A DNA stretch of 64,000 nucleotides. Origin: Candidatus Dojkabacteria bacterium. Lineage in GTDB: Bacteria > Patescibacteriota > Dojkabacteria > J137. The stretch covers positions 120,979-184,978 of the forward strand of contig JAUQWV010000001.1 in assembly GCA_030834985.1 (NCBI GenBank). The letters run 5' to 3'. This document shows positions 9,051-55,961 of this stretch, piece by piece; the stretch's first letter is position 1; every line of letters starts with the position of its first letter. The position numbers were made by a program, and so were the translations under genes. Under the pieces are notes generated by a model. The model worked only from the letters and a program-made list of their open reading frames with translations. It was not told where the DNA came from and did no database searches.

Positions 9051-9905
9051 ATGACTAAACCTGAGAATTCTAAATTAATCGTATTAGATATTGATAACAC
9101 TATAAATACTAAAAATCTAAATGGAGAGATTCAATTAGTTAAAGAATTTATAGACTTACATACTAAGATCGATTTAAAGAAGAATATTAAAATTGCTTAT
9201 AATACAACTAGGGGAATCTCTCGGGTTTTGGAAATGCTAAAAGGTGAACAGGAATATTTCGGTAATGGAGTAATATCAGCATTAAATGGTTCTTTGATCT
9301 ACGATCTTAAAGGTATGCAACAACTTGAAGGTTATACTATCTCAAATGATATTAGAAAAATGTTGTCGGAATGGTTTATAAAAAACACAGATATAACATT
9401 TATGGCATTTTATACTAATAACGATATATATGGTCATGTATATTTGAAAGATGCTAATAATGTTGATGAGTTCTATAAATTGCATGAATCTTCTTTTAAT
9501 CATGAGAAATATAGATGTATATCTGATCCTAAAATCTTTGCTTCATGGATTGAACAAAAAGATATCAATATGATTGAATTCAAAACGGCTGATGAAAATA
9601 AAACAAATGAATTTTTGATTAATAATCCCAACATAAACTTCTCCTTTGATGGACATTTTTATATTAATCCTAAAGGTATAAATAAAGGATCAGGGTTAAG
9701 AGATTTAATAAGATTTATTTATAGAGATGAAACTAATTTGGATATTATAGTTGCTGGTGATTCTAAAACAGATTTAGCAATGTTTCTGGATTCAAACTAT
9801 ATGAATATTATTGTCGGAGAAAGACTACCAGAAATTAGAAATGAGAATTATACAAAAGTAAAAGATCCAAAAGAACTTTGCAGTATTTTAAGTAGCTTAT
9901 TATGA
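9051..9905 (+). CDS. HAD-superfamily hydrolase, Cof/IIB-type phosphatase
   Basis: Motif I LIVLDIDNTI (DxDxT), C-terminal IVAGDSKTDLAMF (GDxxxD), and a cap-domain-sized insert. Confidence 0.65.
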   Translation: MTKPENSKLIVLDIDNTINTKNLNGEIQLVKEFIDLHTKIDLKKNIKIAYNTTRGISRVLEMLKGEQEYFGNGVISALNGSLIYDLKGMQQLEGYTISNDIRKMLSEWFIKNTDITFMAFYTNNDIYGHVYLKDANNVDEFYKLHESSFNHEKYRCISDPKIFASWIEQKDINMIEFKTADENKTNEFLINNPNINFSFDGHFYINPKGINKGSGLRDLIRFIYRDETNLDIIVAGDSKTDLAMFLDSNYMNIIVGERLPEIRNENYTKVKDPKELCSILSSLL

Positions 9906-10813
9906 ACATATCCAGCAAAACAAAAGTTAACAGTGTATATCAATTGCCTGCTAATAAAAATGAATTATCAAAATTATCTGATATTACTACACTTGGGAAA
10001 ACATATAGCCTAATGAAATATGGCTCTCGGTTAGCAATCAGAGATTTCGCAGAACTAATATATAGCCAATACGAGAAGGACTTTGATTACAAAGATGGTG
10101 ATTTGTATATAACATCTACTCTAACCTCAGATATTGATTCCAGCTCACACTTTATTGCAAGGGAACTTCAAGAGATTATCAATAGAAAAAGATTAAAACT
10201 TAACCTCAAATCTTGTAAATATATTGAACTACTTGCACGAAAAAAAATACTTATTAGTAGCGATTACGGAAAAGTACAGAATAAAAAAGATAGAATTCAA
10301 TCACAAGGTAATATGGAACTTATAACATATCCAAATCTTAAGTCTGATGATTTACTACTTGTTATTAATGATTGTTTCGTGACCGGTGCTCAATGGGAAC
10401 TACAAGAAGAATTATTGAGAAGTAATAGGTTAACCTCTCTTATTAATTATTACTATATTATTAAATTTACTGAATCAAAAGGTAGCTTTGATATTAGTGT
10501 AGAAGACTTATTGAACAACTATGAAGTTAATAATGATTTAGATTTCTTAAATTTAATTATTAAGCTTTCGAAAGACAAACAGTTAACTTGGAATAAAAGA
10601 ACATTATTAAGGTCACTAAACCTTAATCAAAAACATTTTGAACTATTTATAGATGGGTTGAGAGTCGAAGATTTAGAAACTCTTTGTAATAATTCAGTAT
10701 TATCAGATACTCATCTTGTAAATAACGGAGAGTTTTTAGGCAAAATTGATTATATGTTCAATGTGTTGAAGAATAAAATCCAGAGAGAAGGATTCGAACC
10801 TCCGAAGCCCTAA
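9902..10813 (+). CDS. hypothetical protein with type I phosphoribosyltransferase-like PRPP motif
   Basis: SDDLLLVINDCFVTGAQ resembles the PRTase PRPP-binding loop. The last ~35 nt overlap tRNA-Tyr on the opposite strand, and the C-terminal ...REGFEPPKP is the antisense translation of the tRNA T-arm. Confidence 0.4.
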   Translation: MNISSKTKVNSVYQLPANKNELSKLSDITTLGKTYSLMKYGSRLAIRDFAELIYSQYEKDFDYKDGDLYITSTLTSDIDSSSHFIARELQEIINRKRLKLNLKSCKYIELLARKKILISSDYGKVQNKKDRIQSQGNMELITYPNLKSDDLLLVINDCFVTGAQWELQEELLRSNRLTSLINYYYIIKFTESKGSFDISVEDLLNNYEVNNDLDFLNLIIKLSKDKQLTWNKRTLLRSLNLNQKHFELFIDGLRVEDLETLCNNSVLSDTHLVNNGEFLGKIDYMFNVLKNKIQREGFEPPKP

Positions 10814-10862
10814 GGACGCCTGATTTACAGTCAGGTGCGATTGACCGCTCCGCCATCTCTGG
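10779..10862 (-). tRNA. tRNA-Tyr (GTA), long variable arm, no encoded CCA
   Basis: Minus strand reads CCAGAGA-TG-GCGG-AGCGGTCAA-TCGC-A-CCTGA-CTGTAAA-TCAGG-(15 nt variable arm)-GGAGG-TTCGAAT-CCTTC-TCTCTGG-A. Confidence 0.8.
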
Positions 10863-10991: not shown

Positions 10992-12116
10992 ATGTTAGAC
11001 AATCTAAAAAATATAACAGAAGAAATTCTAGGAGAAGAAAGACTCGTAGAGCTATTAAATTCTAATATACAACCAGTACACTATATTGGATTTGAAATAT
11101 CAGGAAAACCTCATATCGGTTCAGGTATTGTTACCATGATGGTTATAAAGGAGCTATTGAAGCTAAATGTTAAATGTAAGATATTTTTAGCTGATTGGCA
11201 TTCATGGATTAATAACAAACTAGGAGGAGACATCGATTTTATAAGAGAGGTGGGCATCCCTTATTTTAAAGAAAACATTTTAGCTGCAGCAAAATGCGTA
11301 GGCGTTGATCCATCTAATATCGAATTTGTAATTGGTTCCGACCTTGCAAAAGATATGCAATATTGGGCTACTGTAGTAGATGTTGGTAGAAATACCAGTC
11401 TATCTAGAATTCAAAGAAGTATTACCATTATGGGTAGAAAGGAAGGAGATAGTGTGGATTTTGCGAAATTAATGTACCCAGCCATGCAAGCAGCAGATAT
11501 TTTCTACATGGGTATACATATCGCTCACGCTGGTATGGATCAACGTAAGGCACATGTTATTGCTATTGATGATGCAAATCATATGGACATAAATCCAATA
11601 ATAGTAAATGAGAAAAAATTTAAACCAGTAGCAGTTCATCAGCATTTACTGATGGGCCTTACTCCTCCATCAAAAGAGATATTAGAACGTATTGAAAAAG
11701 GAGAAATTTCTCCAAAAGATGTTTTAGGGGAATTAAAGATGAGTAAAAGTAAGCCAGACAGTGCTATTTTTATGAATGACTCAGAAGAAGAAGTTATTAG
11801 AAAGATTAACAAAGCTTATTGCCCTGAGGGAATTACTGTTTTAAATCCCGTTTTAGATTGGGTAGAAAACTTGTGTTTTAAATTCTCCAATTCAGAGATC
11901 AATATTCTAAGAGATGAGAAATGGGGAGGAAATATTACCTACAAAACATATGAAGAGCTAAAGAATGATTTTGAACAAAAGAAATTACACCCAAGTGATT
12001 TAAAGAAGGCAGTAGCACTATTTATAAATGATTTCCTTAGACCTGCCAGAGAGCATTTGTCCAAGCAAGAGATTGTTGAAATGGCAAAGAAAATAGAAGA
12101 AAAGGTAACTAGGTAA
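10992..12116 (+). CDS. tyrS: tyrosyl-tRNA synthetase, archaeal/eukaryal type
   Basis: HYIGFEISGKPHIGSG (HIGH region), ELKMSKSKPDSAIFMNDSEEEVIRKINKAYCPEG (KMSKS plus the archaeal-type TyrRS tail). ~374 aa with no bacterial-type C-terminal S4 domain. Confidence 0.8.
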   Translation: MLDNLKNITEEILGEERLVELLNSNIQPVHYIGFEISGKPHIGSGIVTMMVIKELLKLNVKCKIFLADWHSWINNKLGGDIDFIREVGIPYFKENILAAAKCVGVDPSNIEFVIGSDLAKDMQYWATVVDVGRNTSLSRIQRSITIMGRKEGDSVDFAKLMYPAMQAADIFYMGIHIAHAGMDQRKAHVIAIDDANHMDINPIIVNEKKFKPVAVHQHLLMGLTPPSKEILERIEKGEISPKDVLGELKMSKSKPDSAIFMNDSEEEVIRKINKAYCPEGITVLNPVLDWVENLCFKFSNSEINILRDEKWGGNITYKTYEELKNDFEQKKLHPSDLKKAVALFINDFLRPAREHLSKQEIVEMAKKIEEKVTR

Positions 12117-12749
12117 ATGAATAACTTTGAAATAGATAAAAAACAATTTACTTTTAAATATAATGATAAGAATTCAAAAATTCTTATCATTACAGGACCA
12201 AGGTCAGTTGGAAAAACTACACTTGCAAAACAATTTTATGAATCTATAGGTATAGATTTTCTGGATCTCGATGATTTAGTTAATGAGAAGCTGAGTGAAT
12301 TCTTTAAGTCTGGTTCCAAAACACCTTTAGAACAAGCTATGGAGGCAAAAAACTATGACTTAATAGAAAGTATAGTTAGAGATATTGTTCAGAGTTTTGA
12401 TAATATAAACCAAGCTACTGCCATTGCTTTTGCAGGAGGAGCGTATACAGGATACCAAGGGTTATCAGGAGATTTAAAATCGAAATTTATTACAATAGGA
12501 TTAATTCCATACGAGAATGACGATGAACTATCAGTAAAATTGCTAATTGAAAGAGAATCTAATCGGGAGCATTTCAAAAAACTTATTGATGAAGGGAAGT
12601 TAGATATGGAAACTTTATCTAATCGAGTACGAAATGATTATATTAAAGTAAATACTTATCTAAGAGCAAATACAATAGATGAATTAATTTTTATCCAACA
12701 AAAGACACCTATCGAAATAATGAACCAGGTGTTGGATTTATTAAAGTAG
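12117..12749 (+). CDS. P-loop kinase (shikimate/adenylate-kinase-like fold)
   Basis: Walker A ILIITGPRSVGKTTLAKQF followed by LDLDD. Its start overlaps the tyrS stop codon. Confidence 0.45.
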   Translation: MNNFEIDKKQFTFKYNDKNSKILIITGPRSVGKTTLAKQFYESIGIDFLDLDDLVNEKLSEFFKSGSKTPLEQAMEAKNYDLIESIVRDIVQSFDNINQATAIAFAGGAYTGYQGLSGDLKSKFITIGLIPYENDDELSVKLLIERESNREHFKKLIDEGKLDMETLSNRVRNDYIKVNTYLRANTIDELIFIQQKTPIEIMNQVLDLLK

Positions 12750-12752
12750 AAT

Positions 12753-13310
12753 ATGAAATATTTAGAGTATAAATTCGATAACTATAATATATTAGTTAGA
12801 AATATTGAAGAAGCTCAACGAATTGTAAACGAAAAGTTTGAAAAAGAGGAAGAGTTCTTTACAGATCCAGCTGACCCACGATTATTAACCTTACCTACTA
12901 TTAATACTGACGCATACATTCAAAAGGTGGGTGTAGATCAAAATAATCAAATAGCAGTCCCTGATAATATTCATTTAGCTGGCTGGTATATAAATAGTGT
13001 TAAACCAGGTGAAAAAGGCTTGAGTATAATAGATGGACACGTAGACGGCTTATTCAATCCTGGGGTTTTCCGTAACTTAAAAGAGCTTAAACAGGAAGAT
13101 ATTTTTACTATTGAATATGGTAATGGTAGTATCTATACATTTAAAGTTGTAGATAAAAAAGAAATTTCTACTGAAGATGCTGCAAAAGTTTTATTTTCAA
13201 AAAATCCTGGTATAGTAAGCCAGTTGAATTTAATTACCTGTGTTGGAGTATTCGATCCGTCAGTCCAAAGTTACGACAAAAGATTAATTGTAATTGCCGA
13301 AAAAATATAG
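12753..13310 (+). CDS. sortase-family transpeptidase-like protein with no N-terminal membrane anchor
   Basis: The catalytic triad is present in order: His (IIDGHVDG), Cys in LNLITCVG (TLxTC-like), and Arg 14 residues later (YDKRLIV). No hydrophobic N-terminus. Confidence 0.5.
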   Translation: MKYLEYKFDNYNILVRNIEEAQRIVNEKFEKEEEFFTDPADPRLLTLPTINTDAYIQKVGVDQNNQIAVPDNIHLAGWYINSVKPGEKGLSIIDGHVDGLFNPGVFRNLKELKQEDIFTIEYGNGSIYTFKVVDKKEISTEDAAKVLFSKNPGIVSQLNLITCVGVFDPSVQSYDKRLIVIAEKI

Positions 13311-13708: not shown

Positions 13709-14750
13709 TTATTATATGGAACAACTAAATACAATACTTTCTTCAGCTAAAAAAGTATTTATAACGTCGCACCTTAAGCCAGATACAGATGCAGTCTCTT
13801 GTTTATTAGCTATGCATTATTATGTATCTCAAGTTTATCCTAATGTGCAGGCAGCTGCTTATCTTAGTGGTGAAATGACAGATTCTTTAAATGAACTTTA
13901 TGGATTTAGTCAAATTAAATGGGTAGCTGATATTTCAGGTTATGTTAATGAATACGATACATTAATATTTGTAGATGCTTCTCAATTACATCGATTCACT
14001 ATAAATCCAGATAAAATAGACCTAACTAAATTTAAGTCTATATGTTTTGACCATCATAATAACGAACCTTCTAAATTTACTTATATTGTTAATGAGTTTA
14101 ATGAACCTTCATGTTCTCAGGTATTATATAAACATCTATTTAAAGAACGCAGTGACCTACTGAATCCGGCAATTGGAGAGGTTTTGCTGACAGGGATAAT
14201 GGGAGATACAGGATCTTTAAGATACATTGGCAGCAAAACCTCAAATACTCTACTTTTAGTTAAGGAATTACTTGATGCTACTGGTTTGCAGATTAAAACT
14301 ATTCAGGAAAAGTATTTTGGATATCCAGTATCAGATTGGGAGATTATCACGGCGTTAATAACCAATACAAGGCTTGTATCTGACTATCAACACCCATTTT
14401 TATACTCTTATTTACCACTTGAATTTCTAGATAAGTATTCAACTAATACAATTAAACAAGCAAAAAATAAATTTTTGTTTTTAGTTAGCGGCACGATTAA
14501 AGGATATAAATGGGGATTTGTAGCTACTCCAGACACTTTAAAGAATGTAAATCTTTCATTTAGATCAGGTCCAGATTCTGTTAATGTAAGGCTTTTAGCA
14601 GAACAGTACTTTAATGGCGGTGGCCATGATCAAACTAGTGGTGGCGAGGTAGTATTATCTGATAATCAGACAGTCGAAGATCTTGTTTATAAGATGGAAA
14701 GTCAAATCAAATCGCTCTCTGATTTACCATTAATCGTGAAAACTCCATAG
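13695..14750 (+). CDS. DHH-DHHA1 phosphoesterase (NrnA-like oligoribonuclease / pAp phosphatase)
   Basis: DHH motif CFDHHNNEP, the Asp-rich FVDASQ motif, and the DHHA1 GGGH motif (NGGGHDQTSGG). Confidence 0.75.
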   Translation: MANHNYYMEQLNTILSSAKKVFITSHLKPDTDAVSCLLAMHYYVSQVYPNVQAAAYLSGEMTDSLNELYGFSQIKWVADISGYVNEYDTLIFVDASQLHRFTINPDKIDLTKFKSICFDHHNNEPSKFTYIVNEFNEPSCSQVLYKHLFKERSDLLNPAIGEVLLTGIMGDTGSLRYIGSKTSNTLLLVKELLDATGLQIKTIQEKYFGYPVSDWEIITALITNTRLVSDYQHPFLYSYLPLEFLDKYSTNTIKQAKNKFLFLVSGTIKGYKWGFVATPDTLKNVNLSFRSGPDSVNVRLLAEQYFNGGGHDQTSGGEVVLSDNQTVEDLVYKMESQIKSLSDLPLIVKTP

Positions 14751-14786
14751 ATTGACGAATTTTCTTAGGAAATTTGTGAAAACATC

Positions 14787-14815
14787 TTGCATTAGTCTTT
14801 CTCATGTACTACAAT
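14787..14815 (+). promoter_or_regulatory. putative sigma70-like promoter TTGCAT-17-TACAAT
   Basis: Hexamers read from the sequence in the 330 bp gap upstream of the GC-rich ABC exporter. Confidence 0.3.
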
Positions 14816-14908
14816 AAAACTTATCATTTTTACAGAATTATATCTATTTAATGACAAGAATTATTAAACTAACAATTAATAACTACGGGCAAGACTTTGC
14901 GCGTATAT

Positions 14909-14942
14909 CTTGTCGGATTTAACTTTCGTTACCTCCGACAAG
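14909..14942 (+). promoter_or_regulatory. GC-rich leader hairpin (cttgtcgga...tccgacaag, 9 bp stem) in the 5' region of the ABC exporter
   Basis: Perfect inverted repeat; the leader 14880..15082 is visibly more GC-rich than the surrounding intergenic DNA. Confidence 0.3.
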
Positions 14943-15082
14943 CCACTTTGGATTGGTCGGAAGGTTTGAATTACTACATACAAAAGACGTTGATTTCCTC
15001 CAAAGGTGGTTTGACGGGTGTAATGAGCTTACGCAAGTAGCTTAAGCACCTTGCTGTTTAACAACCTATTCTAAGGAGACGT

Positions 15083-16969
15083 GTGATGAAGCAGTATCGG
15101 CGTTCGCAGTACAAAAAGCTCTCAAAGCAAGGTGCTTTACATAGCTTCTTGGCTATCCTTTGGGAGTATCGGGCGTTTATGTACGTTCCGGCATTTTTTG
15201 TTTTAATGCTGGAGCTGGCACAGATGGGGGCAAGGGTCTTTATTTCAGAGATTCTTACCCGAATTGAGTTGGCTGACTGGGGAGTACTTGGCGTTCTGCT
15301 GATTTCTCTCTTTGCCTACAACATGCTCACTTTGCTTCTTGACGTTAAGATGGTACGAGCAGTCATTGAAAAGGTCGGCTATGACTTTGCATTTGCATTC
15401 GAAAATCGAGTCATAAGCCACGTAATTCGGCTAGGTCATACTTTCAATTCATCATTTCCTATCTCTGTAACCCTAGATAGGATCTCTAAGATTGAAAGGG
15501 TGTCTGACCTTGTTGAACAGGGCTTTTGGGCTTTGTTTAACAACCTGTTTCAAGGTGCAATAAGCATTGTGGTACTGGCAATCTACTTGCCACAGGCAGT
15601 TCCAATTGTAATCATTGTGTTCTTCCTGTTCCTTCGGTTCAATGGGCACATGATTGCAAAGCAGGGAGTTGTAAGGCGCCGGCGAAAAGATCGAGGTGAG
15701 GATAAAGCAGAAACTCGAATGAGACTGATTTCAGCAAATACTACTCTGCTCTCTAACAATGCGTTAGACCGGACAGAGGAAGAGGTATTTGCTCAGTCTA
15801 GAAATCTAAAGCGTGTGGGAATCCTTGAGTTGCTCTATGTTCTTCGGGGCAATGGGATAATCAGGGACATCCTTCTGTACTTTGGTCGGTTCTCGGTACT
15901 TTCATTTGCAGTGTACATGGCACAAATCAAACTGATAGACATCCCTAAGCTGGTTCTAATCTATACAGTAAGCGAGACCATGTTTATTGGTCTTTGGGGT
16001 GTTGTAAGGTTTATCTATTCGTTCATGTACGAAAGCCCGTCGATAATTAAAATCGATGAGCTGATGGCTATTAAGCCAACTGTAACAGAGCCTGAAAGTG
16101 CTGTGACCATTCCAAGCGGTCCTTTGGGATATTCTCTGCAAGGAGTAAGCTTTACCTACAAGGGAATCGAAAGTAAGTCAGAAAAACAGGAGAATCCGTT
16201 CTTTACGGAAGCTCTGAAGAAAGCGAATGCACTACGTCTGCAACTTGGCCTTGAAGAATATGTAGAAAGAAAAGAGGAGGAGAAGCCGCAGCATTTATGC
16301 GGACTTACTCTTAACATACTTCCAGGTCAAAAGGTTGCTCTGGTCGGGCAAAGCGGTTCGGGTAAAAGCACTCTAGCGCTGATGCTTTCTAAGCTTCAGC
16401 TGGCGGATACTGGCGAAGTTTATGTAAACGGTATCGAGATGAGAGAGCTTAACGGCTATGAACTCCGTTCCAGAATCGCTGTTGTACCTCAAGGCAGCAA
16501 TGTTGATATCTTCAACGATAGTCTACTTTACAATATCACATTGGGTGATCCGAGCTTCACCGAGCAAGATGTTATTGAAGCGTTAAAGGTAGCTGAGCTG
16601 TGGGATACAGTTTGTCAGTGGCCTTTGATGATCTTTGAAACTATCGGGGAGCGCGGGCGTACATTGTCGGGCGGTCAGCAGCAAAGGGTCGCAATCGCCC
16701 GCGCTGCAATCCGTAAACCTGACCTCATCATTCTAGATGAGGCTACAAGCGCATTGGATACTCAAACAGAGCGTGCAGTTCAGGATTCGCTAAATAAGCT
16801 GCTTGATGGACGAACAGCAATAATCATTGCTCACAGGTTATCCACAATTAAGGATGTGGATAAGATTGTAGTGATGAAAGACGGCTGTATAGTTGAAGAA
16901 GGCAGCTGGAACGAATTGGTCGGTCAAGACGGCGAATTTGCCGCGCTTGTAGATGCGCAAACCCTATAG
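15083..16969 (+). CDS. ABC transporter, fused permease/ATP-binding protein (exporter type), GC-rich
   Basis: N-terminal multi-TM domain; NBD with LVGQSGSGKSTLALML (Walker A), LSGGQQQRVAIARAA (signature), IILDEATSALD (Walker B) and IAHRLST (H-loop). RBS aaggagacgtgtgATG. Confidence 0.8.
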   Translation: MMKQYRRSQYKKLSKQGALHSFLAILWEYRAFMYVPAFFVLMLELAQMGARVFISEILTRIELADWGVLGVLLISLFAYNMLTLLLDVKMVRAVIEKVGYDFAFAFENRVISHVIRLGHTFNSSFPISVTLDRISKIERVSDLVEQGFWALFNNLFQGAISIVVLAIYLPQAVPIVIIVFFLFLRFNGHMIAKQGVVRRRRKDRGEDKAETRMRLISANTTLLSNNALDRTEEEVFAQSRNLKRVGILELLYVLRGNGIIRDILLYFGRFSVLSFAVYMAQIKLIDIPKLVLIYTVSETMFIGLWGVVRFIYSFMYESPSIIKIDELMAIKPTVTEPESAVTIPSGPLGYSLQGVSFTYKGIESKSEKQENPFFTEALKKANALRLQLGLEEYVERKEEEKPQHLCGLTLNILPGQKVALVGQSGSGKSTLALMLSKLQLADTGEVYVNGIEMRELNGYELRSRIAVVPQGSNVDIFNDSLLYNITLGDPSFTEQDVIEALKVAELWDTVCQWPLMIFETIGERGRTLSGGQQQRVAIARAAIRKPDLIILDEATSALDTQTERAVQDSLNKLLDGRTAIIIAHRLSTIKDVDKIVVMKDGCIVEEGSWNELVGQDGEFAALVDAQTL

Positions 16970-20121: not shown

Positions 20122-21573
20122 TTAGAAAGCAAAACTTAGGATTAAACATAGCATAAGTATTAGCACAGTTCCTCCTAAAAGAAGAGCTTTATAGACTTTT
20201 ATTCTTCTTATTGCTTTTTTGCTCTCTTCTATTGCATAAACTACAGTAGCTAGATTAGCAGAAAGTAAAATAATACTGCTTTTTTCTTTTGCGATATCAA
20301 CTGCACTATCTGTAACAAGATTAACATTTGCGATATTTAAATTCTGTAATTGATCATATCCACGGCTTATATATCCTACAGTGCCCTCTTTTTTTAGCAT
20401 TTCAATAATCTTATATTTATCAGAATTATCTGTATCTGCAAATATATTCCCGTCAGCAGCTAAGCCAATAGATCTTGCTATATGACTAGCTATCTCCTTT
20501 GATTCTTCTGTTACAATCTTAAGCTGAATTCCAAGGTGGCTAGCCTCTTTAACAGCAGCTGCAACACCTTCTTGTATTTGGTCATAATAAAAATATGTGC
20601 CTATATACTTGAATCCTCGATTATGTTTTATAGCAAAAGCTACTGCTTTTAATCCATTTTTAGAGTTTTGGATAATTTTATTTTGAATTTCAGCGGTGTC
20701 TTTTCTAGTTAATCCAAAAATATATTCCGGATCACCTTTTATGATTTCAAAATCTTTAAATTTTCTAGATGAAAATTTGTTAATAGGATCAAACGGAGTT
20801 TCATGCAATAAAAATTCACTCTGTTCCTCAACATTTAAGAGCTTTAAATAATGCAAAATACATTTATCTAATGGATCTGTACTTTCTACAACAGACAAAT
20901 AGCTATATTTTAAAAACTCTTGAATATCAATTACTGAATCGTAAGATTCTACATTTAATTTGTTTAGAGTGAATGTTCCTGGAATGTCTGTAATTAAAAT
21001 GTTTATTGTACTTAACTCCTTAATTGCATTAGCATTTTTAATAATAACTTTATGTTTAGATAGTTTAAGCGCGGTATTTTTTAGTACTTTAGAGAAGATA
21101 CCTCCAGTATATTTGGAAATTGAATTACTAGCGGCAGCGCGTGGATACTTAATATTTTTGCCTGTGGCAAAAACCTTAACAATTGCGCTGCCGCCAACTA
21201 CATAACTTCCAGAATATACAATCCCATCTTGAGAATTTCGCTGAAGATTTAGATTCTCTTTTTTTGTAACTTCTTTAGCATTTCCTTCTACAAGTATAGA
21301 TTCATCAACTAATAAACTATCTTGTTCTAAAACAAATGAATCTGCACAAACAATATCACCTGCCTTTAAGAATAAAATATCATCTGGAACAACAGCAGAC
21401 TTATCTACCCAAGATTTTTTACCGTCTCTTAGAACAAGTGCACGGTTAGTAACTACTTTTGAAAGTTGAGTAAAAACATCATTTTGCTTCTTAGCTGCTA
21501 AAGGAACTAGGTTTTCACCATGTACTCTTATTGCCTTTGTTGCTTGATTCCAGCCTAATCCTTCTATATTCAT
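20122..21573 (-). CDS. P-type ATPase-like protein with degenerate catalytic motifs and only one C-terminal TM helix
   Basis: Actuator-like LRDGKKSWVDKSAVVPDDILFLKAGDIVCADSFVL...VDESILVEGN (TGES replaced by VEGN); phosphorylation loop ITDIPGTFT (canonical SDKTGTLT; Asp kept, Lys lost); hinge GYISRGYDQL in place of GDGVND; a single C-terminal TM. Confidence 0.5.
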   Translation of the reverse strand: MNIEGLGWNQATKAIRVHGENLVPLAAKKQNDVFTQLSKVVTNRALVLRDGKKSWVDKSAVVPDDILFLKAGDIVCADSFVLEQDSLLVDESILVEGNAKEVTKKENLNLQRNSQDGIVYSGSYVVGGSAIVKVFATGKNIKYPRAAASNSISKYTGGIFSKVLKNTALKLSKHKVIIKNANAIKELSTINILITDIPGTFTLNKLNVESYDSVIDIQEFLKYSYLSVVESTDPLDKCILHYLKLLNVEEQSEFLLHETPFDPINKFSSRKFKDFEIIKGDPEYIFGLTRKDTAEIQNKIIQNSKNGLKAVAFAIKHNRGFKYIGTYFYYDQIQEGVAAAVKEASHLGIQLKIVTEESKEIASHIARSIGLAADGNIFADTDNSDKYKIIEMLKKEGTVGYISRGYDQLQNLNIANVNLVTDSAVDIAKEKSSIILLSANLATVVYAIEESKKAIRRIKVYKALLLGGTVLILMLCLILSFAF

Positions 21574-35636: not shown

Positions 35637-35942
35637 TTAGCTTGCCCCATCCCAGTAATACTTTTTTAAATCAACGATCTTTTCCTGTGAGAATTTGATG
35701 CCGTCAGCAAGCAGTCTTATTTTTTGCTCCTGCCACCCTCCAAGTGAAAATTTTTCTGCAAGTTTTCCTTCTTTATTAACAACTCTATGGCACGGAATAT
35801 TTTTATCTTGATTACCCCAAATAGCCCATCCAACTTGTCTGGCATCATTTATACCTGCTAACTTAGCAACTGTACCGTATGTTGTAACTTTCCCGGCTGG
35901 AATTCTTTTTACAATCTGTTTAATTTTTTCAAAATTATTCAT
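35637..35942 (-). CDS. MGMT-family DNA-binding/alkyltransferase domain protein (stand-alone C-terminal domain, active-site Cys present)
   Basis: PCHRVV active-site motif (NIPCHRVVN) plus a helix-turn-helix region TYGTVAKLAG; 101 aa. Confidence 0.7.
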   Translation of the reverse strand: MNNFEKIKQIVKRIPAGKVTTYGTVAKLAGINDARQVGWAIWGNQDKNIPCHRVVNKEGKLAEKFSLGGWQEQKIRLLADGIKFSQEKIVDLKKYYWDGAS

Positions 35943-41424: not shown

Positions 41425-42357
41425 CTACTTCTCTGTTGCGGTGATAAGGGCGGTAATGTCTATTTTTTTCATATCCAATAAAGCCTCCATTGCACGCTTA
41501 CCTTTTTCTTTATCTTCCTGATAAATAAGCTCATTTATTTGCTTAGGAACTATTTGCCAGCTTACTCCGTACTTATCTTTACACCATCCGCATGCTTCTG
41601 CTTCTGGTACAGCAGATAATTTTTCCCAGTAGTAATCTACTTCTGCTTGATCTTCACACTCCACAACAAAAGATACTCCTTCAGTAAAATTGAAGTCATG
41701 CTGACGTCCGCTATCCATTGCTGCAACCCAGGTATTTAGTATTTTAAAATCAGTGAACATTATATTTCCTTCTTTATCAGGTTCCATTCCTGCTGGATAT
41801 CGTGTTAATGTTCCGCGCGCGCTATCTTTAAAGACTGAGATATAAAAATTACTTGCTTCTTCGGCTTTGCCGTTGTTATCTCCAGCAAAAAGAAGTGAAG
41901 GTACAATTACAGGTCGCGCTTCTCCTTCCGGGTTTGTTAATATTAATTGCCAAGACACTCCATATTTATCTTGTATCCAGCCATACCACTTACTAAAAGG
42001 GTATTTACCAAGCGGCATTAATACCTTGCCTCCCTCAGATAATTTACCCCAAAGCTGATCTAGTTTACTACGAGAATCTCCTGCATTAACGTCATTTTTT
42101 GGATCAAAATTTACAATAAAAGAGATCGATGGATTGACTTTAAAAAAGGGCCCTCCATTAAGCGTTTGAAATCTTTGTCCTGCAATAGAAAAGTCAACAG
42201 TTATTATACTGCCAATTGGCTTATTAGATGGAGTTTCGGCGTTGTAGTAGTTTATTTCTCCAAGCTCTGCGTTTTCAAAAATATTAACATAAAAACGCGC
42301 CGCTTCTTCAGCTTCGTTGTCCATCCATAACTCTACGATTAGACCGTTGCTATTCAT
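41425..42357 (-). CDS. tandem PhnB-like VOC (glyoxalase-fold) domain protein
   Basis: Two copies of the PhnB-family C-terminal motif (WIQDKYGVSWQL and CKDKYGVSWQI), each at the end of a ~150 aa domain. Confidence 0.6.
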   Translation of the reverse strand: MNSNGLIVELWMDNEAEEAARFYVNIFENAELGEINYYNAETPSNKPIGSIITVDFSIAGQRFQTLNGGPFFKVNPSISFIVNFDPKNDVNAGDSRSKLDQLWGKLSEGGKVLMPLGKYPFSKWYGWIQDKYGVSWQLILTNPEGEARPVIVPSLLFAGDNNGKAEEASNFYISVFKDSARGTLTRYPAGMEPDKEGNIMFTDFKILNTWVAAMDSGRQHDFNFTEGVSFVVECEDQAEVDYYWEKLSAVPEAEACGWCKDKYGVSWQIVPKQINELIYQEDKEKGKRAMEALLDMKKIDITALITATEK

Positions 42358-42629
42358 TTTTTAGTTTTTAACAAATAAAACAATACATCTTTGAAGGAAA
42401 ATATCCCCCAAACTGCATTAACAACCATAAATGGTACTGAATTAGTGCTAGCAGCATAAACAAATAAACATATACTGCTAATTGTGTTCATCAGATCATA
42501 GATAGGAGAACTATTTTTGAGTTTATTAACCTGGTTTAATAAAAATGCTGTAAGAACTACTGTTGATCCTACAACTCCTATGATTGTGTAAACGTCCATA
42601 TTTGTATAGTTGTAAAAAGCTAAGTACAA
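42354..42629 (-). CDS. small 3-TM membrane protein (91 aa)
   Basis: Hydropathy only; start overlaps the preceding gene by 4 bp. Confidence 0.4.
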   Translation of the reverse strand: MYLAFYNYTNMDVYTIIGVVGSTVVLTAFLLNQVNKLKNSSPIYDLMNTISSICLFVYAASTNSVPFMVVNAVWGIFSFKDVLFYLLKTKK

Positions 42630-42655
42630 TATAGTATATAAAATTTATTAGGAAA

Positions 42656-43480
42656 TTGGCAATGGACTCTATTACAGTTAATTCGGTTAGAATTACTAAA
42701 CCTAACAAACTTTTATACTTAAATCCCGCTATTTCAAAGTTAGAAGTGATTGAATACTACGAAACTGTTTCAAAGCATTTTATTAATGAGTTAAGTGGCA
42801 GGCCGATTAGCATGGTTAGAGCACCAGAGGGTGCTAAAGGTCATAACTTTTATCAAAAGCATCCTACAGAATCTTTTCCTGAATATATTGAGCGTGTTGT
42901 TATTAAAGAAAAGAGCAAGGACGGGGTTTATATTACAATTGATGGGCTTAACGACATTACATACTTAGTTAATATTGGTGTTTTAGAATTTCATATATGG
43001 GGAAGCAAGATTGATGATATCGAACATCCCGATAGAATAGTTTTAGACTTAGATCCATCTGTTACAAATGAGAATGTGGTAGATGACTTAAGAGAGTTAA
43101 GTCTATCTGTAAAAGAATTATTTGAGTCGAATGGTTATAAGCCATTAATTAAAACTTCTGGCTCAAAAGGTTTTCATATTTATGCTGATGTTAAAGAGTT
43201 TGATTACTCATGGGATGAACTTAAAGTTGTTGCTAAAACTATTGCCGAAAAAATGGTTAAGCAAAATCCTAAAAAGTATACTATTGAATTTAATAAAAAA
43301 GATCGAGGAACAAAAATATTTATTGATTATTTAAGAAATCAAAGGGGCGCGACCATGGTCGCGCCCTATTCTCTACGTAGTAAAGAAGGCGCCTGTATAT
43401 CATTTCCTTTTGCGTGGGATAAGCTAAAAAATATAACTCCTACATTTTTCACAATAAAAAACTATCAGAGATACTTATAA
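42656..43480 (+). CDS. stand-alone NHEJ polymerase/primase domain protein (LigD Pol domain, AEP superfamily)
   Basis: LDLDPS (catalytic Asp pair region), KTSGSKGFHIYADV, and IDYLRNQRGATMVAPYSLRSKEGACISFPF, which by recollection match the LigD Pol-domain motifs KTSGGKGLHV and VDxLRNxRGxTxVAPYSVR. Confidence 0.7.
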   Translation: MAMDSITVNSVRITKPNKLLYLNPAISKLEVIEYYETVSKHFINELSGRPISMVRAPEGAKGHNFYQKHPTESFPEYIERVVIKEKSKDGVYITIDGLNDITYLVNIGVLEFHIWGSKIDDIEHPDRIVLDLDPSVTNENVVDDLRELSLSVKELFESNGYKPLIKTSGSKGFHIYADVKEFDYSWDELKVVAKTIAEKMVKQNPKKYTIEFNKKDRGTKIFIDYLRNQRGATMVAPYSLRSKEGACISFPFAWDKLKNITPTFFTIKNYQRYL

Positions 43481-43524: not shown

Positions 43525-44565
43525 ATGGGCGACATATCAATTTTAAGAATAAGAATTAACTACTCTGATTTAGAGGTTTTTACCTTAGTGTTTTTACAAG
43601 TTCACGTTATATATCCGCTTATTTTAATTGCTGTATTATTCTTGCTTAAGAATTTTATTTTCTGGTTTTTATCTTTCTTTAATAGAAATTCTATTTTTTC
43701 ATATTTAAGAATTCTGATAAATAAAATCAGACGGGCAAGGTATTGGGGAATTATTTATGACAGTAAACGATTATCACCTGTAAGGTTTGCTAGAGTTAAG
43801 TTAATAAAATTTGAAAAGCAAGGTGAAAAAGTAGTTAAAAAAATAGTTGGAACAACGATTTCTGATTATTTAGGAAGGTACTATTTTAACTATAAAGGTG
43901 AGTATAAAAATCTCTTTTTAGAGGTAAATTCATTTGGATACAAGAGATTTTATAAAGAAATAGACACTTTAAAGCATATCGAACTTAATAATGAAATTAT
44001 ATTTGATGCTGCATTAGTTAAATCAAAACAAGGTTTTAACCTTTCTAAATTCGCATACTTTGTTAACTTTATATTTGTAGTTTTAACGTTATTTTTAGCT
44101 GGTCTTGGCCTGATAGTGAGTATTTACTATCAGCTGTCTTCAATTAGAGCTGAAGCCTTTATATTCACTGCTATTTATGTATTTATATTATATATCAATA
44201 TTACAAATCTACTTAAGAGGTTCACACTTAAAAAGCTCGAGGTACTAGAATCTTTATTAATGCATAAAATCCCTGGTGCAGTAGTTAGACTGTACGATAA
44301 AAAAAATAATCTACACTTTGCAGTAACAAATAAAGACGGTTATGTTTTGCTTGATTGGGAACCTGGTGCCCATCAGATTATTGTTACAAAGCGTGGATAT
44401 CAAATATTGGATGATAATACAGGTACTGAAGATAAAAAAACATGGCTTACTCATACAAAACATGTTAGACTAAAACGTAAGTTTAAAAATCATACTGTAT
44501 CTACTACAGATAAAGATATAAAGATTAAGCCCGTTTCTTCTTTAAATAACCCTTTTACTGCTTAA
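43525..44565 (+). CDS. membrane protein with two carboxypeptidase-regulatory-like (CarboxypepD_reg) beta-sandwich domains
   Basis: ARVKLIKFEKQGEKVVKKIVGTTISDYLGRYYFNYKG and AVVRLYDKKNNLHFAVTNKDGYVLLDWEPGAHQIIVTKRGYQ match the V.L.D..G..(L/V)..TD..G.Y pattern; 3-4 TM helices. Confidence 0.45.
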   Translation: MGDISILRIRINYSDLEVFTLVFLQVHVIYPLILIAVLFLLKNFIFWFLSFFNRNSIFSYLRILINKIRRARYWGIIYDSKRLSPVRFARVKLIKFEKQGEKVVKKIVGTTISDYLGRYYFNYKGEYKNLFLEVNSFGYKRFYKEIDTLKHIELNNEIIFDAALVKSKQGFNLSKFAYFVNFIFVVLTLFLAGLGLIVSIYYQLSSIRAEAFIFTAIYVFILYINITNLLKRFTLKKLEVLESLLMHKIPGAVVRLYDKKNNLHFAVTNKDGYVLLDWEPGAHQIIVTKRGYQILDDNTGTEDKKTWLTHTKHVRLKRKFKNHTVSTTDKDIKIKPVSSLNNPFTA

Positions 44566-44595: not shown

Positions 44596-45843
44596 ATGTT
44601 TATTATGTTTGAACCTATACCTTCAAAATATAGACCAGAAACTTTAGATGAATTTATTGGTCAAAAGCATTTAGCAGCTAACGGAATGCCTATTAGAAAC
44701 TTTATTGAAAGTGGTAATATCCCTTCAATGATCTTTTGGGGGCCTCCTGGAACAGGTAAAACTACTTTAGCTAATATCATTTCTAAAAGTGTAAATGCAA
44801 ATTTTCATAAACTTTCGGCAGTGATGAGTGGAAAATCTACTTTAATGGAGATTATTGGAGAAGCTGTGGCTGAAACTAAGGATAATAAACTGTTCGAGCC
44901 TAAAAAAACTGTATTATTTTTAGATGAAATTCACAGGTGGAACAAATCTCAGCAAGATGCTCTACTGCCTTATGTAGAAAAAGGAACAATTATTTTGATT
45001 GGTGCTACAACAGAAAATCCATCTTTCTCATTAAATCCTGCCTTATTATCGCGAACGAGGGTTTTCACTTTTACAAAACATACAGCGGAAGATGTTAAGC
45101 AATATTTAGAATATTTATTGAAACGAGTTAAAAGTGAAAACCCTTCATTAGACTACGAAAAAGACGTTATTGATTTAATTGCTAAAGCTTCTGATGGCGA
45201 TTTACGAACTGCTGGCAATATTGTAGAAACTGCAATTTACTTAAGTGATGGTAAGAAAATCACTAAAGACACCCTTAAAAATGCTTTAGAAAATTTTTTA
45301 CAATACGAAAAAACAGGTGAAGATCACTTTAACATTATATCAGCGGTTCATAAATCGCTTAGAGACTCAGATGCTACTGCAGGAGTTTATTGGATTGTTA
45401 GAATGCTTCAGGCAGGAGATGATCCGTTATACATTGCGCGAAGGTTATTAAGATTTGCATCTGAGGATATTGGAAATGCTGATACAAACGCAGTAGTGTT
45501 AGCAAATACAGTATTTGAATCGTGCCAAAAACTTGGACGTCCTGAATGCGATATCTTTTTAGTACAACTTGCTGAATATTTAGCTAACGCGCCTAAAAAT
45601 AATTCAGCTTATGTGGCATTAGGCTTAGCTCAAAAAGATATCGCTGATTTCGGCTCATTGCCTGTACCTCTTCATATTAGAAATGCAGTAACTAATTTAA
45701 TGAAAGACTTAGGCTATGGAAAAGATTATAAATATGCGCATAATTATAAAAATGCTAAAGTCAATCAAGACCATCTGCCAAAAGAATTAAAAGGAAGAAA
45801 TTATTTTGCTGCTAAAGATAGACCTGAAGATAAAGACATTTGA
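44596..45843 (+). CDS. rarA: replication-associated recombination protein A (AAA+ ATPase RarA/MgsA)
   Basis: FIGQKHL, Walker A WGPPGTGKTTLA, Walker B LFLDEIHRWNKSQQDALLP, the ATTENP motif, and a C-terminal MgsA domain. Confidence 0.85.
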   Translation: MFIMFEPIPSKYRPETLDEFIGQKHLAANGMPIRNFIESGNIPSMIFWGPPGTGKTTLANIISKSVNANFHKLSAVMSGKSTLMEIIGEAVAETKDNKLFEPKKTVLFLDEIHRWNKSQQDALLPYVEKGTIILIGATTENPSFSLNPALLSRTRVFTFTKHTAEDVKQYLEYLLKRVKSENPSLDYEKDVIDLIAKASDGDLRTAGNIVETAIYLSDGKKITKDTLKNALENFLQYEKTGEDHFNIISAVHKSLRDSDATAGVYWIVRMLQAGDDPLYIARRLLRFASEDIGNADTNAVVLANTVFESCQKLGRPECDIFLVQLAEYLANAPKNNSAYVALGLAQKDIADFGSLPVPLHIRNAVTNLMKDLGYGKDYKYAHNYKNAKVNQDHLPKELKGRNYFAAKDRPEDKDI

Positions 45844-52640: not shown

Positions 52641-53537
52641 CTATCTTTCTAGTTCAGTTACTATATCTCTAAGTTCTGCAGCTTTTTCAAATTCCAGCAT
52701 ATCTGCGTACAACTGCATTTGAAACTTGATTTCTTTTAAGAATTTTTTCTGTTCAGATTTATTCATAGCTTTAAAGCTTTCGGCTTTTGCCAATAAGTTT
52801 TGTTCTTCAGCAGCTTCCTGCTCTGATTCGCTGCCCCCGGCAAAAGCCGAAAGCTGATCCTTAATCTCTTTTACGACTGTTGTAGGAGTAATTCCATGCT
52901 CTTTATTAAACTTATCTTGAATTGCTCTTCTGCGTCTAGTTTCATCAATTGCAAATTTCATAGAATCAGTAATTTTATCAGCATACATTATTACTCTGCC
53001 TTCAGAGTGTCTGGCTGCTCTACCTATTACCTGAATTAAACTAGTCTGAGATCTTAAAAAACCTTCTTTATCGGCATCTAAAATTGCTACTAACGATACT
53101 TCTGGCAAATCTAAGCCCTCTCTTAAAAGGTTAATACCAACAAGCACATCGTACTGTCCTAATCTTAATTCCTTTAATATCTTTACTCTTTCCAAAGAAT
53201 CTATATCTGAATGCAAGTATTTTGCCTTAATGCCTTTTTCAGTAAGATAGTCAGATAGTTCTTCTGACATTCTTTTTGTTAAAGTTGTAACTAGAACCCT
53301 TTGCTTTTTTTTAATGGTCGCCTGAATTTCATCTATTAAGTTTGGAACCTGTGGTTGAGTCCAATCTGATGCGTTATATAAAGGCATATCTGTATAGCCG
53401 TTTTTTTCTAAATCTTTTTTGAGGTTAGAAAATGTCTCGGGCAATGAAGGACGAACTTCTACAATAGGGTCAAGAAGCCCTGTTGGTCTAATAATTTGAT
53501 AAACAATTCCTTTGTAGTCTTTTGGTAAAATTGCCAT
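52641..53537 (-). CDS. uvrB: UvrB C-terminal half only (helicase domain 2 plus UvrC-binding UVR domain); N-terminal ATPase half absent, possible pseudogene
   Basis: [16 protein letters not shown], then [18 protein letters not shown]...[57 protein letters not shown], near-identical to recollected E. coli UvrB from ~residue 400. C-terminal [11 protein letters not shown] is the UVR motif. Only 37 nt separate it from dcd upstream, so there is no room for the missing half. Confidence 0.7.
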
Positions 53538-54152: not shown

Positions 54153-55961
54153 TTATGTACGTTCTGAAAACTGTTGTCTAGAGTTGTAATCTGGTGCCGA
54201 GATATCTTCAGTCATTCCTACCAAAAATGGATCAGAGTTCTGTATAAGTGTAAGCATATCGTGTGCCATATCTCTATTAGAAATATCGTTACCAGTTGTA
54301 GAGCGTTGGTCTGTAAAGTAATCCAATTGTGTAGGTGGTCCGCTTAAGTGCATTCGCGTTTGATGTCCTAGTGGAAGCAGTTTTCTAATTACAGTTAGAT
54401 CTTTATTAGGAAATCTTGCCGCTAAATATTTATAGAATTCCATTAACTTTTGATAATATGCATTGGCATCAGCTTCCCATTGACCCTGTAAGTGCTGTAA
54501 ACCTTCAGTTTTAATAATTTTTGAACTTGTATTAAAGCCATTCGCGATCATAGCCTCATAGTCTACTTGGTCATTTTCGTTATAATCAAAATTTAGCAAG
54601 TATCCAATATCTTGTCTACCTAACGCTCTGTGTCGATTAAAGTCTCTTAATTGGGCTAATGCGGTATTAAGTACAAATAATTTATCACCTCTAATATCAC
54701 CTAGATTACCCATCTTTTCATGTCGAGTATGATTTTGGAATATAATTGAACCTATCTCTCTTTTTGCTTGATCATCTAATGTGGCCAACCAACTTAATAC
54801 TGTTGATTCTTTAAGATTAGGATATGCGGTGCAAATGTACTGCATTGCTACTAAAGCGCCACTTGGGGCGCCGTCAATAAGGGTTACTTCTGTTTGCCTT
54901 GCATAATCCACGGTGTTAGGGACGGCGCCCTCCAATAACTCATTAAATGCTGGCATTGCTTCCAAATATGCTCTTAAATTACTTACGTTTTCTCTTATTG
55001 TAAGTGTAGGATCAGTATATTTTATTAATGGTTCAAGATTCGCATTTACATCTTGCCCCTCTTCTGTTTCTGAAAGTGAAAGTGCAAATCTAAGTTGCTC
55101 TGCTAACTCTACATATTCCTGCTCGCCAGTTTCTTGCATTATTTTTATATAGTTATTGAAGATTCTTTGATTACCTAATAGGCACATAGAAGTAGTTGCG
55201 CCCATAGGAATCCAACTTCTTACTACATCTAACACTCTGGCTTTTATAGTATTGTCTTCTAATGGTTCATCTTCTGGATTGCCTGCAAACTGCTGTAGGT
55301 AACCCTGCTCAATTAATTGGTACCACTTAACGTAATTACCTTCAGCCATTGCTAATAGCTCATAATATTGCTCAATAATATGCTCTTTATCCGCTTCAGA
55401 TCCTGCAGGAATTACCGAAAAATCCATTAAATCTTCAATCCGCGGAAAATTCATCTTATTGAATTTTATATATCTGCTTGAAGATTCCTGTCCATCGCCA
55501 TACCATAGATGATGGAAAATCCAGTATGCCTGCTCTAGCGATATATTATTAAAGAATAGAAATACTGGAATCATTCCCAGGATAGATTGATGTCCATAAT
55601 CTAGTCCAAATTCCTTAATCTTTCTTGCAGCAGCAACAGGATCCATTTGTACAAGCTCCAATACTTCATCAAAGATCTCTTCATAGCTTTTTCTAGTTCT
55701 AGAGGTTCTGGCGCCGCTCCAGGCGGGAAAAATATGCTTATCTATTCCTCCTTCTGATTTCGGTTCACTAAATGGAAAGAATGAGACAATCGGTTTTGTA
55801 GGATCTTGTCTTTTAACCTGATATAGCAAGTTGTGCAGTTTACCGTCAACTTCTCTTGTTACAACATCGATAGAAAATTTAGGAGGGTGTTGTACTTCAG
55901 CTTCTGATTCTACAGATTCTGGCCGTGTTTTAGATATTTCTTGATTCTGATCTAAAGACAT
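54153..55961 (-). CDS. large ThyX-family (flavin-dependent thymidylate synthase)-like protein with duplicated-domain architecture (602 aa)
   Basis: C-terminal half: FNRHRALGRQDIGY (RHR motif) and RKLLPLGHQTRMHLSGPPTQLDYF, aligned by eye to recollected T. maritima ThyX [24 protein letters not shown]. N-terminal half: GHQSILGMIPVF and YWIFHHLWYGDGQESSSRYIKF versus ThyX GHETPFEHIVF / [20 protein letters not shown] (RHR degenerate, SxRY kept). Adjacent to dcd. Confidence 0.5.
   Translation of the reverse strand: MSLDQNQEISKTRPESVESEAEVQHPPKFSIDVVTREVDGKLHNLLYQVKRQDPTKPIVSFFPFSEPKSEGGIDKHIFPAWSGARTSRTRKSYEEIFDEVLELVQMDPVAAARKIKEFGLDYGHQSILGMIPVFLFFNNISLEQAYWIFHHLWYGDGQESSSRYIKFNKMNFPRIEDLMDFSVIPAGSEADKEHIIEQYYELLAMAEGNYVKWYQLIEQGYLQQFAGNPEDEPLEDNTIKARVLDVVRSWIPMGATTSMCLLGNQRIFNNYIKIMQETGEQEYVELAEQLRFALSLSETEEGQDVNANLEPLIKYTDPTLTIRENVSNLRAYLEAMPAFNELLEGAVPNTVDYARQTEVTLIDGAPSGALVAMQYICTAYPNLKESTVLSWLATLDDQAKREIGSIIFQNHTRHEKMGNLGDIRGDKLFVLNTALAQLRDFNRHRALGRQDIGYLLNFDYNENDQVDYEAMIANGFNTSSKIIKTEGLQHLQGQWEADANAYYQKLMEFYKYLAARFPNKDLTVIRKLLPLGHQTRMHLSGPPTQLDYFTDQRSTTGNDISNRDMAHDMLTLIQNSDPFLVGMTEDISAPDYNSRQQFSERT

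Follow-up and report, generated by a model that had tools for sequence, protein, structure and literature searches.

Stand-alone polymerases of the LigD family

Polymerase domains (PolDoms) of LigD, the bacterial protein of non-homologous end joining (NHEJ), also exist as independent proteins. One gene of this kind, at positions 42662..43480 of the forward strand, is the only PolDom gene seen in a 64,000-nucleotide stretch of a Candidatus Dojkabacteria genome (contig JAUQWV010000001.1), the whole of which is called the window here. Its 272-amino-acid product is probably a functional repair polymerase of the NHEJ branch (LigD-Pol/Prim-PolD), chromosomal and vertically inherited, that would act as a free-standing enzyme in the fill-in of gaps or break ends.

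The best match of the Dojkabacteria PolDom is Mpa-Pol of Methanocella paludicola (5DMU), both in sequence (E=1.8e-49; 2.6e-74 with the clade profile) and in structure (template modelling (TM) score of 0.91). The two are stand-alone proteins of ~270-300 amino acids that feature the same motifs and the lysines of the phosphate pocket, at an identity of only ~29-31%. In archaea the genes for ligase, nuclease and polymerase remain together in one operon (PMC5124664), unlike the Dojkabacteria gene, which has no Ku, ligase or phosphoesterase (PE) gene nearby. The polymerase domain of bacterial LigD (Mycobacterium tuberculosis Rv0938, 2IRU and 4MKY; Pseudomonas aeruginosa, 2FAO) has the same fold (TM 0.85-0.89) and shares with the Dojkabacteria protein the catalytic triad, the K16/K26 pocket, His111 and the lysine and arginine of loop 2. 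It differs by its fusion to ligase and phosphoesterase domains, which the Dojkabacteria PolDom lacks, and by an asparagine at position 13, where the latter has a lysine. Neither a ku neighbour nor a fused or adjacent ligase and phosphoesterase, the hallmarks of a canonical Ku and LigD system, is found at the locus.

Free-standing PolDoms occur also in mycobacteria, whose PolD1 and PolD2 carry out templated and non-templated addition with a preference for ribonucleotides (rNTPs) (PMC4176160), and in Streptomyces, with 2-3 scattered PolDom genes and 0-4 ku genes per genome, some genomes having no ku (PMC5124664). These proteins are not fused to a ligase, like the one described here. Their hosts, in contrast, have large genomes that encode also full LigD and/or Ku, whereas the Dojkabacteria gene belongs to an uncultured, small-genome bacterium of the candidate phyla radiation (CPR). 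Lone PolDom genes are thus already documented in Mycobacterium and Streptomyces, and the present one adds a case in an under-studied phylum.

Prim-PolC, the gap-filling polymerase associated with LigC in base excision repair (5OP0, 6SA0), is likewise encoded by a stand-alone gene and has the same core fold (TM 0.88). It provides a precedent for Ku-independent fill-in of short gaps with ribonucleotides and has a conserved carboxyl-terminal extension formed by alpha-8 and Loop 3, amino acids 294-336 of the M. smegmatis protein (PMC5663958). The Dojkabacteria PolDom ends at residue 272, aligned to position ~270 of 5OP0. The absence of the alpha-8/Loop 3 extension rules out that it is a Prim-PolC, and it is classified as a Prim-PolD-type domain. 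No ATP-dependent ligase is encoded near the Dojkabacteria gene, whereas a Prim-PolC gene is expected in an operon with a LigC-type ligase, often with FPG; an MPG-type glycosylase gene ~30 kb away (locus L098) does not constitute linkage.

Gene, start codon and family

The original prediction described a stand-alone NHEJ-type archaeo-eukaryotic primase (AEP) of the LigD-Pol kind, encoded by an open reading frame (ORF) at 42656..43480 (+) that codes for 274 amino acids from a TTG codon and carries the motifs KTSGSKGFHIY and RGATMVAPYSLR. This ORF and its motifs are present and the assignment was borne out, the qualification as an orphan holding for the neighbourhood only. The true start is most likely the ATG codon at 42662, because it is preceded at 8 nt by the ribosome-binding site AGGA read from the sequence (42650..42653, +), the amino termini of the relatives are all MDSIT or MDTVI, and public gene calls begin at the same codon. 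The alternative TTG at 42656, which adds two residues, lies only 2 nt from the AGGA. It was ruled out by this spacing, by the homologue amino termini and by an exact-match lookup: the 272-residue product is on record in public assemblies (at least 100 blocks), and the 274-residue form has no exact match.

The protein is a LigD-type, Prim-PolD-like AEP according to Pfam, NCBIfam, the AlphaFold2 (AF2) model and Foldseek. It matches Pfam PF21686 (LigD_Prim-Pol) with E=3.6e-76 and 256.5 bits (cutoff 27.4) over residues 28-271, covering positions 2-244 of the 254 in the profile, and NCBIfam TIGR02778 (ligD_pol) with 257 bits (curated cutoff 214.7) over the entire profile (1-245 of 245). As sequence matches these are far beyond chance. 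Models of full-length LigD score the protein far under their cutoffs (261 bits against 373 for TIGR02776), which indicates that it is the polymerase domain alone and not a truncated LigD.

Predicted fold and functional residues

The AF2 model, calculated with the clade alignment as input, has a mean predicted local distance difference test (pLDDT) score of 94.1 and a predicted TM (pTM) score of 0.90. Foldseek superimposes it on the Methanocella NHEJ polymerase 5DMU with a root mean square deviation of 2.0 A, and reaches TM scores of 0.89 with 2FAO, 0.87 with 2IRX and 0.88 with Prim-PolC, the solved PolDoms ranging overall between 0.85 and 0.91. The next fold class, that of the replicative PriS primases, gives a TM score of only ~0.5. 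The sequence matches in the PDB that follow 5DMU are 2FAO (E=2e-40), 5OP0 (5e-35) and 2IRU (7.5e-28).

Residues were mapped by profile alignment to the M. tuberculosis PolDom 2IRU and their conservation was assessed over 23 sequences of the clade. The roles known for the M. tuberculosis enzyme, including those of Lys16, Lys26 and Asn13 in the 5'-phosphate pocket, are those compiled in a structural review (PMC8656161). The pocket segment (42707..42739, +) encodes K16 (42707-42709), conserved to at least 90% in the clade, and K26 (42737-42739), which is invariant. The group F63-Y64-Q65-K66 (42848..42859, +) corresponds to F63, F64 and K66 of M. tuberculosis, which provide base stacking and the fidelity lysine; F63 and Q65 are invariant, and for Y64 and K66 conservation is 90% or more. 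The same level of conservation is found for His111 (42992..42994, +), aligned with the M. tuberculosis His111 that makes a hydrogen bond to the 2'-OH of the incoming NTP (PMC8656161) and is there associated with ribonucleotide preference.

The metal-binding aspartates D129, D131 and D222 are equivalent to M. tuberculosis D137, D139 and D227, and the three are invariant in the clade. The first two belong to the catalytic motif IVLDLDP (43037..43057, +), which is invariant as a whole and aligns with the DxD of 5DMU, 2FAO, 5OP0 and 2IRU. The third is found in KIFIDYLRN, behind K212 and R215 of loop 2, the counterparts of M. tuberculosis K217 and R220, a pair that directs the 3' end (43295..43339, +); K212, R215, D222, R225 and N226 are all invariant. 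Between these elements, the SxH motif KTSGSKGFHIY with His172 (43151..43183, +) aligns to all solved PolDoms and has invariant G167, G170 and H172. The motif RGATMVAPYSLR (43343..43378, +) has invariant T231, S237 and R239. Judged by model and alignment, the PolDom fold is complete, none of the residues of recognized importance is missing, and the protein looks active.

The DNA coding for the latter motif contains a perfect GC-rich palindrome of 22 bp, GGGCGCGACCATGGTCGCGCCC (43345-43366), whose 9-bp arms form 8 G-C pairs inside the PolDom gene of a genome with 32% GC. It encodes the conserved GATMVAP; relatives use AT-rich codons for this motif, and the palindrome is thus confined to the species of the window.

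Absence of Ku, ligase and phosphoesterase genes in the neighbourhood

Pfam scans of ~47 ORFs across the window revealed no Ku (PF02735), ATP-dependent ligase (PF01068, PF04679) or LigD phosphoesterase (PF13298), and among the window ORFs without a Pfam match none resembles a divergent Ku or ligase when re-scanned at E<=0.1. Custom hidden Markov models (HMMs) for Ku and PE-ligase were built from 80 ordinary bacterial LigD loci, with representative seeds confirmed by Pfam. These loci, which among the matches listed are at most 41% identical to the Dojkabacteria PolDom and include no Dojkabacteria genome, served as control set: within 10 kb the HMMs find PE/ligase in 75 of the 80 and Ku in 48. 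In the six-frame ORFs of the window and of 18 loci of the Dojkabacteria clade (345 kb) their best E-values are 3.4 for Ku and 3.1 for PE-ligase, which is noise.

A Ku and a ligase encoded just outside the window, an arrangement contemplated in the original prediction, are found neither in the 3.8 kb to its left, which code for DUF5677, EamA and ABC-F proteins, nor in the 10 kb to its right, with genes for GlyRS, an MPG-type glycosylase, VanW, MurG and SSB. Within 10 kb of the PolDom orthologue in nine related lineages there is also no Ku, ATP-dependent ligase or phosphoesterase. The earlier claim that the window lacks ku and ATP-dependent ligase genes is therefore upheld by the Pfam and HMM scans, and extends to ~14 kb beyond the window and to the nine lineages. 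Neither fused to nor clustered with any of the three usual partners, the PolDom is regarded as a free-standing module.

A Ku search seeded with the Ku of locus L099, a low-GC sequence, yielded at least 120 sequences with identities from 69% upwards and is uninformative on Dojkabacteria; among the matches listed, the few named proteins all belong to the class Clostridia or to the Erysipelotrichales. Seven low-GC (23-26%) metagenomic loci (L107, L112, L116, L120, L125, L126 and L128) encode PE-Pol fusions of ~450-490 amino acids, at ~9400-10850 in each, with no Ku within 10 kb. They represent another class of LigD modules without Ku linkage.

Relatives and selection

The search for homologues yielded 6,647 proteins with E<=1e-10. 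The nearest 26 of them, at 42-98% identity, all stand alone and measure 228-291 amino acids; a scan of metagenomes contributed L103 as one additional locus of the clade. Neighbour joining of 203 Pol domains groups the Dojkabacteria PolDom in a clade of 28 stand-alone proteins with 78% bootstrap support, the inner core of the clade (at least 59% identity) reaching 100%. The sister assemblage is a mix of stand-alone Pols, PE-Pol fusions, 5DMU and Prim-PolC.

Every lineage examined keeps an uninterrupted reading frame. Among five lineages dN/dS lies between 0.03 and 0.11 with saturated synonymous sites, values that characterize a gene under strong purifying selection. It is extremely improbable that the gene is a functionless, decaying remnant left behind by an NHEJ operon. 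The usual partners of a PolDom are indeed missing from the neighbourhood, as expected for such a remnant, but the intact frames, the invariant catalytic residues, a dN/dS of ~0.1 with saturated dS and the identical protein in at least 100 public assembly blocks all speak against decay.

Proposed mode of action

Acting as a free-standing module, as do mycobacterial PolD1 and PolD2 or the products of the scattered Streptomyces genes, the PolDom would anchor itself to the 5'-phosphate of a short gap or broken end and then add a few templated nucleotides to the opposing 3'-OH. By analogy with its characterized homologues it would probably prefer rNTPs, a property suited to cells that grow slowly or do not replicate and have small dNTP pools. 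The remaining nick would be sealed by a ligase encoded elsewhere.

Several points weigh against this proposal. The putative substrate and rNTP preference are transposed from homologues that share 26-30% identity in structural alignments. In the phosphate pocket, the position of M. tuberculosis Asn13 is occupied by Lys13 here; the prevailing residue in the clade is His, and a few members have Asn. The closest outgroup examined, L099 (40% identity), features a textbook split operon Ku -> PE-Lig -> Pol in a host that is Clostridia-like, judged from its Ku. In view of this operon, the PolDom clade is probably derived from a conventional NHEJ polymerase, its ancestral role being Ku-dependent NHEJ. 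Finally, a conventional Ku and ligase pair may exist elsewhere in the genome.

In the latter case the PolDom would be the polymerase of a conventional NHEJ system with dispersed genes, whose Ku and ATP-dependent (LigD/LigC-type) ligase, encoded elsewhere in the ~1-Mb genome, would assemble with it at double-strand breaks. Such an organization is possible, if on balance unlikely. It agrees with the Prim-PolD type of the domain, devoid of the Prim-PolC extension, with the presence of Ku, PE-Lig, Pol operons in the nearest outgroup and with the scattered NHEJ genes known in Streptomyces, and the searches covered the neighbourhood of the PolDom gene. It is disfavoured by the lack of Ku and ligase genes within ~78 kb here and within 10 kb in any of the nine clade lineages. 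Moreover, a survey of the literature on NHEJ, LigD and DNA repair in Patescibacteria, CPR and Dojkabacteria found nothing relevant and no paper that treats NHEJ in CPR bacteria.

Bacterial end joining is usually tied to larger genomes. Here the reduced genome of a CPR bacterium retains a strongly conserved LigD-type polymerase by itself, with neither Ku nor ligase genes in its vicinity. Should Ku and ATP-dependent ligase be absent genome-wide, this bacterium would offer a clean natural case of lone PolDom action, for instance in short-gap or ribonucleotide patch repair, and the recurrent proximity of rarA (see below) would be a testable lead. If both were encoded elsewhere, the gene would merely be part of a dispersed NHEJ system.

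Chromosomal position and neighbouring genes

The window has ~32% GC throughout and the PolDom gene, with a GC fraction of 0.32, equals its surroundings. Housekeeping genes code for TrpRS/TyrRS-type synthetases, SerRS, PGK, SecD/F, YchF, a Mur ligase, Ddl, BacA and a pyrophosphatase; this set also includes RarA, an AddA-like helicase-nuclease, a UvrB fragment, RNase H and dCTP deaminase. For PGK and YchF, identical or almost identical proteins are assigned in NCBI to Candidatus Dojkabacteria bacterium or Patescibacteria group bacterium. A VOC-domain protein and a membrane protein had been reported as neighbours of the PolDom, and both are found, the former as a double PF06983 gene and the latter among membrane protein genes on either side.

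The double PF06983 (VOC/PhnB-like) protein, identified by Pfam, is encoded at 41425..42357 (-) in the species of the window only (L001-L006). Its gene is absent from this position in L008, L009 and L011 and is therefore taken to have been inserted recently, between ychF and the pair formed by the PolDom gene and its divergently oriented neighbour. This neighbour codes for a small membrane protein of the CBU_0592 family (42354..42629, -; NF047864, 42.8 bits). It turns up in four lineages, with identities as low as 45% (L011, L007, L094/L095), and is a recurrent companion of the PolDom gene known by position alone. Downstream, after 44 nt, a gene for a 346-residue membrane protein with a weak CarboxypepD_reg-like domain (43525..44565, +) is kept in the closest lineages (L008, L009, L011, L103), and in L009 it begins directly at the PolDom stop codon. 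Another 30 nt separate it from mgsA/rarA on the same strand (44596..45843, +), which codes for the AAA+ replication-associated recombination protein (PF12002 MgsA_C, E=9.6e-55).

Relatives at 59-67% identity keep the gene order ychF, PolDom, 346-residue membrane protein, rarA, abhydrolase, GNAT and Mur ligase, and linkage of the PolDom gene to ychF or to the CBU_0592 gene is still seen at 45-50% identity. This stable position across lineages argues for a chromosomal, vertically inherited gene.

The same context bears on the roles listed in the original prediction: repair is supported, while plasmid or phage replication and defence do not fit the housekeeping synteny, the lack of a PADLOC match and the distance of the relatives found on such elements. 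AEP primase-polymerases are in general common on mobile elements, and the VOC gene beside the PolDom is a lineage-specific insertion. It is nevertheless very unlikely that the PolDom belongs to an anti-phage defence system or serves as primase-polymerase in the replication of a plasmid, phage or integrated element. The gene has no integrase or tRNA beside it, no fusion to a helicase and no flanking repeats. Its GC content equals that of the surroundings, and lineages at 45-98% identity have it at a stable place in the chromosome. No PADLOC model fits the PolDom or its neighbours, the matches to RarA reflecting the generic AAA+ P-loop. Relatives on mobile elements are all under 40% identity: three in IMG/VR (~31%), two unannotated fragments among 50,697 phage records (28%) and 625 plasmid records that are mostly rhizobial ligD. 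Identification as a mobile-element replicative Prim-Pol or a defence protein was rejected on these grounds of context, PADLOC and distant relatives.

The proximity of rarA raises another possibility, that the PolDom does without Ku and works with RarA/MgsA where forks stall or daughter strands have gaps, in gap filling or repriming, by analogy with eukaryotic PrimPol and WRNIP1. In human cells WRNIP1, the orthologue of RarA, regulates the use of PrimPol (PMC13558859), a relation that lends this partnership some plausibility. The rarA gene is found within 10 kb of the PolDom gene in six of the nine clade lineages, 0.03-1.3 kb downstream and on the same strand, and in none of the 80 ordinary LigD loci. 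The six include the rearranged locus L094 (45% identity), where rarA remains just downstream although the flanking genes are reshuffled. The adjacency may, however, be residual synteny of related small genomes, whose flanking housekeeping genes are also syntenic, and is a lead only. The linkage is absent in L007, L092 and L096, a membrane protein gene stands between the PolDom gene and rarA, and in L008 rarA is split while the PolDom is intact. LigD-type PolDoms are also poor de novo primases when compared to true PrimPols. A partnership with RarA is on these grounds doubtful.

A broader scenario, equally speculative, is that Dojkabacteria and perhaps other CPR bacteria with ~1-Mb genomes kept the LigD-type polymerase and lost Ku and the LigD ligase. 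The polymerase would then serve Ku-free gap filling or repriming at stalled forks or excision-repair intermediates, possibly with RarA/MgsA, and the housekeeping ligase would do the sealing. If true, a Ku-free PolDom working with RarA would mirror in bacteria the relation of PrimPol and WRNIP1 in eukaryotes, and would represent a minimal 'ribo-patch' repair pathway.

The split rarA of L008 (67% identity; 11923-12956) consists of two ORFs of 54 and 269 amino acids and is a pseudogene or an assembly error. In L094 (909-3131) and L095 (5827-8049) a Y-family polymerase (IMS+IMS_C+DUF4113) and a Peptidase_S24 protein (UmuD/LexA-like) are encoded 2-4 kb upstream of the PolDom gene, and thus form a damage-tolerance cassette near the locus.

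Other genes of the region

The 298-residue product of the gene at 52641-53537 (-) is only the carboxyl-terminal half of UvrB (Helicase_C and UvrB domains). The gene upstream on the same strand codes for dCTP deaminase, and the amino-terminal half of UvrB is not encoded adjacent to the fragment. A gene for the ~298-residue fragment is kept in L009 and L011, so that it looks like a uvrB conserved in split or truncated form and not like a product of faulty assembly. The unusually long 602-residue protein encoded at 54153-55961 (-) has a weak match to ThyX (Thy1) over residues 104-290 only.

Two ORFs for class-I synthetases of the Trp/Tyr type, at 4929-5978 (+) and 10992-12116 (+), lie 5 kb apart; the first, matched only weakly at 41 bits, is possibly a divergent paralogue. 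Other small repair genes are dispersed over the region. A 101-residue PF01035 protein (Ogt/ATL-like) is encoded at 35637-35942 (-), near the AddA-like helicase-nuclease. Just to the right of the window, locus L098 codes for the MPG-type 3-methyladenine glycosylase (14580-15140) and SSB (20164-20468).

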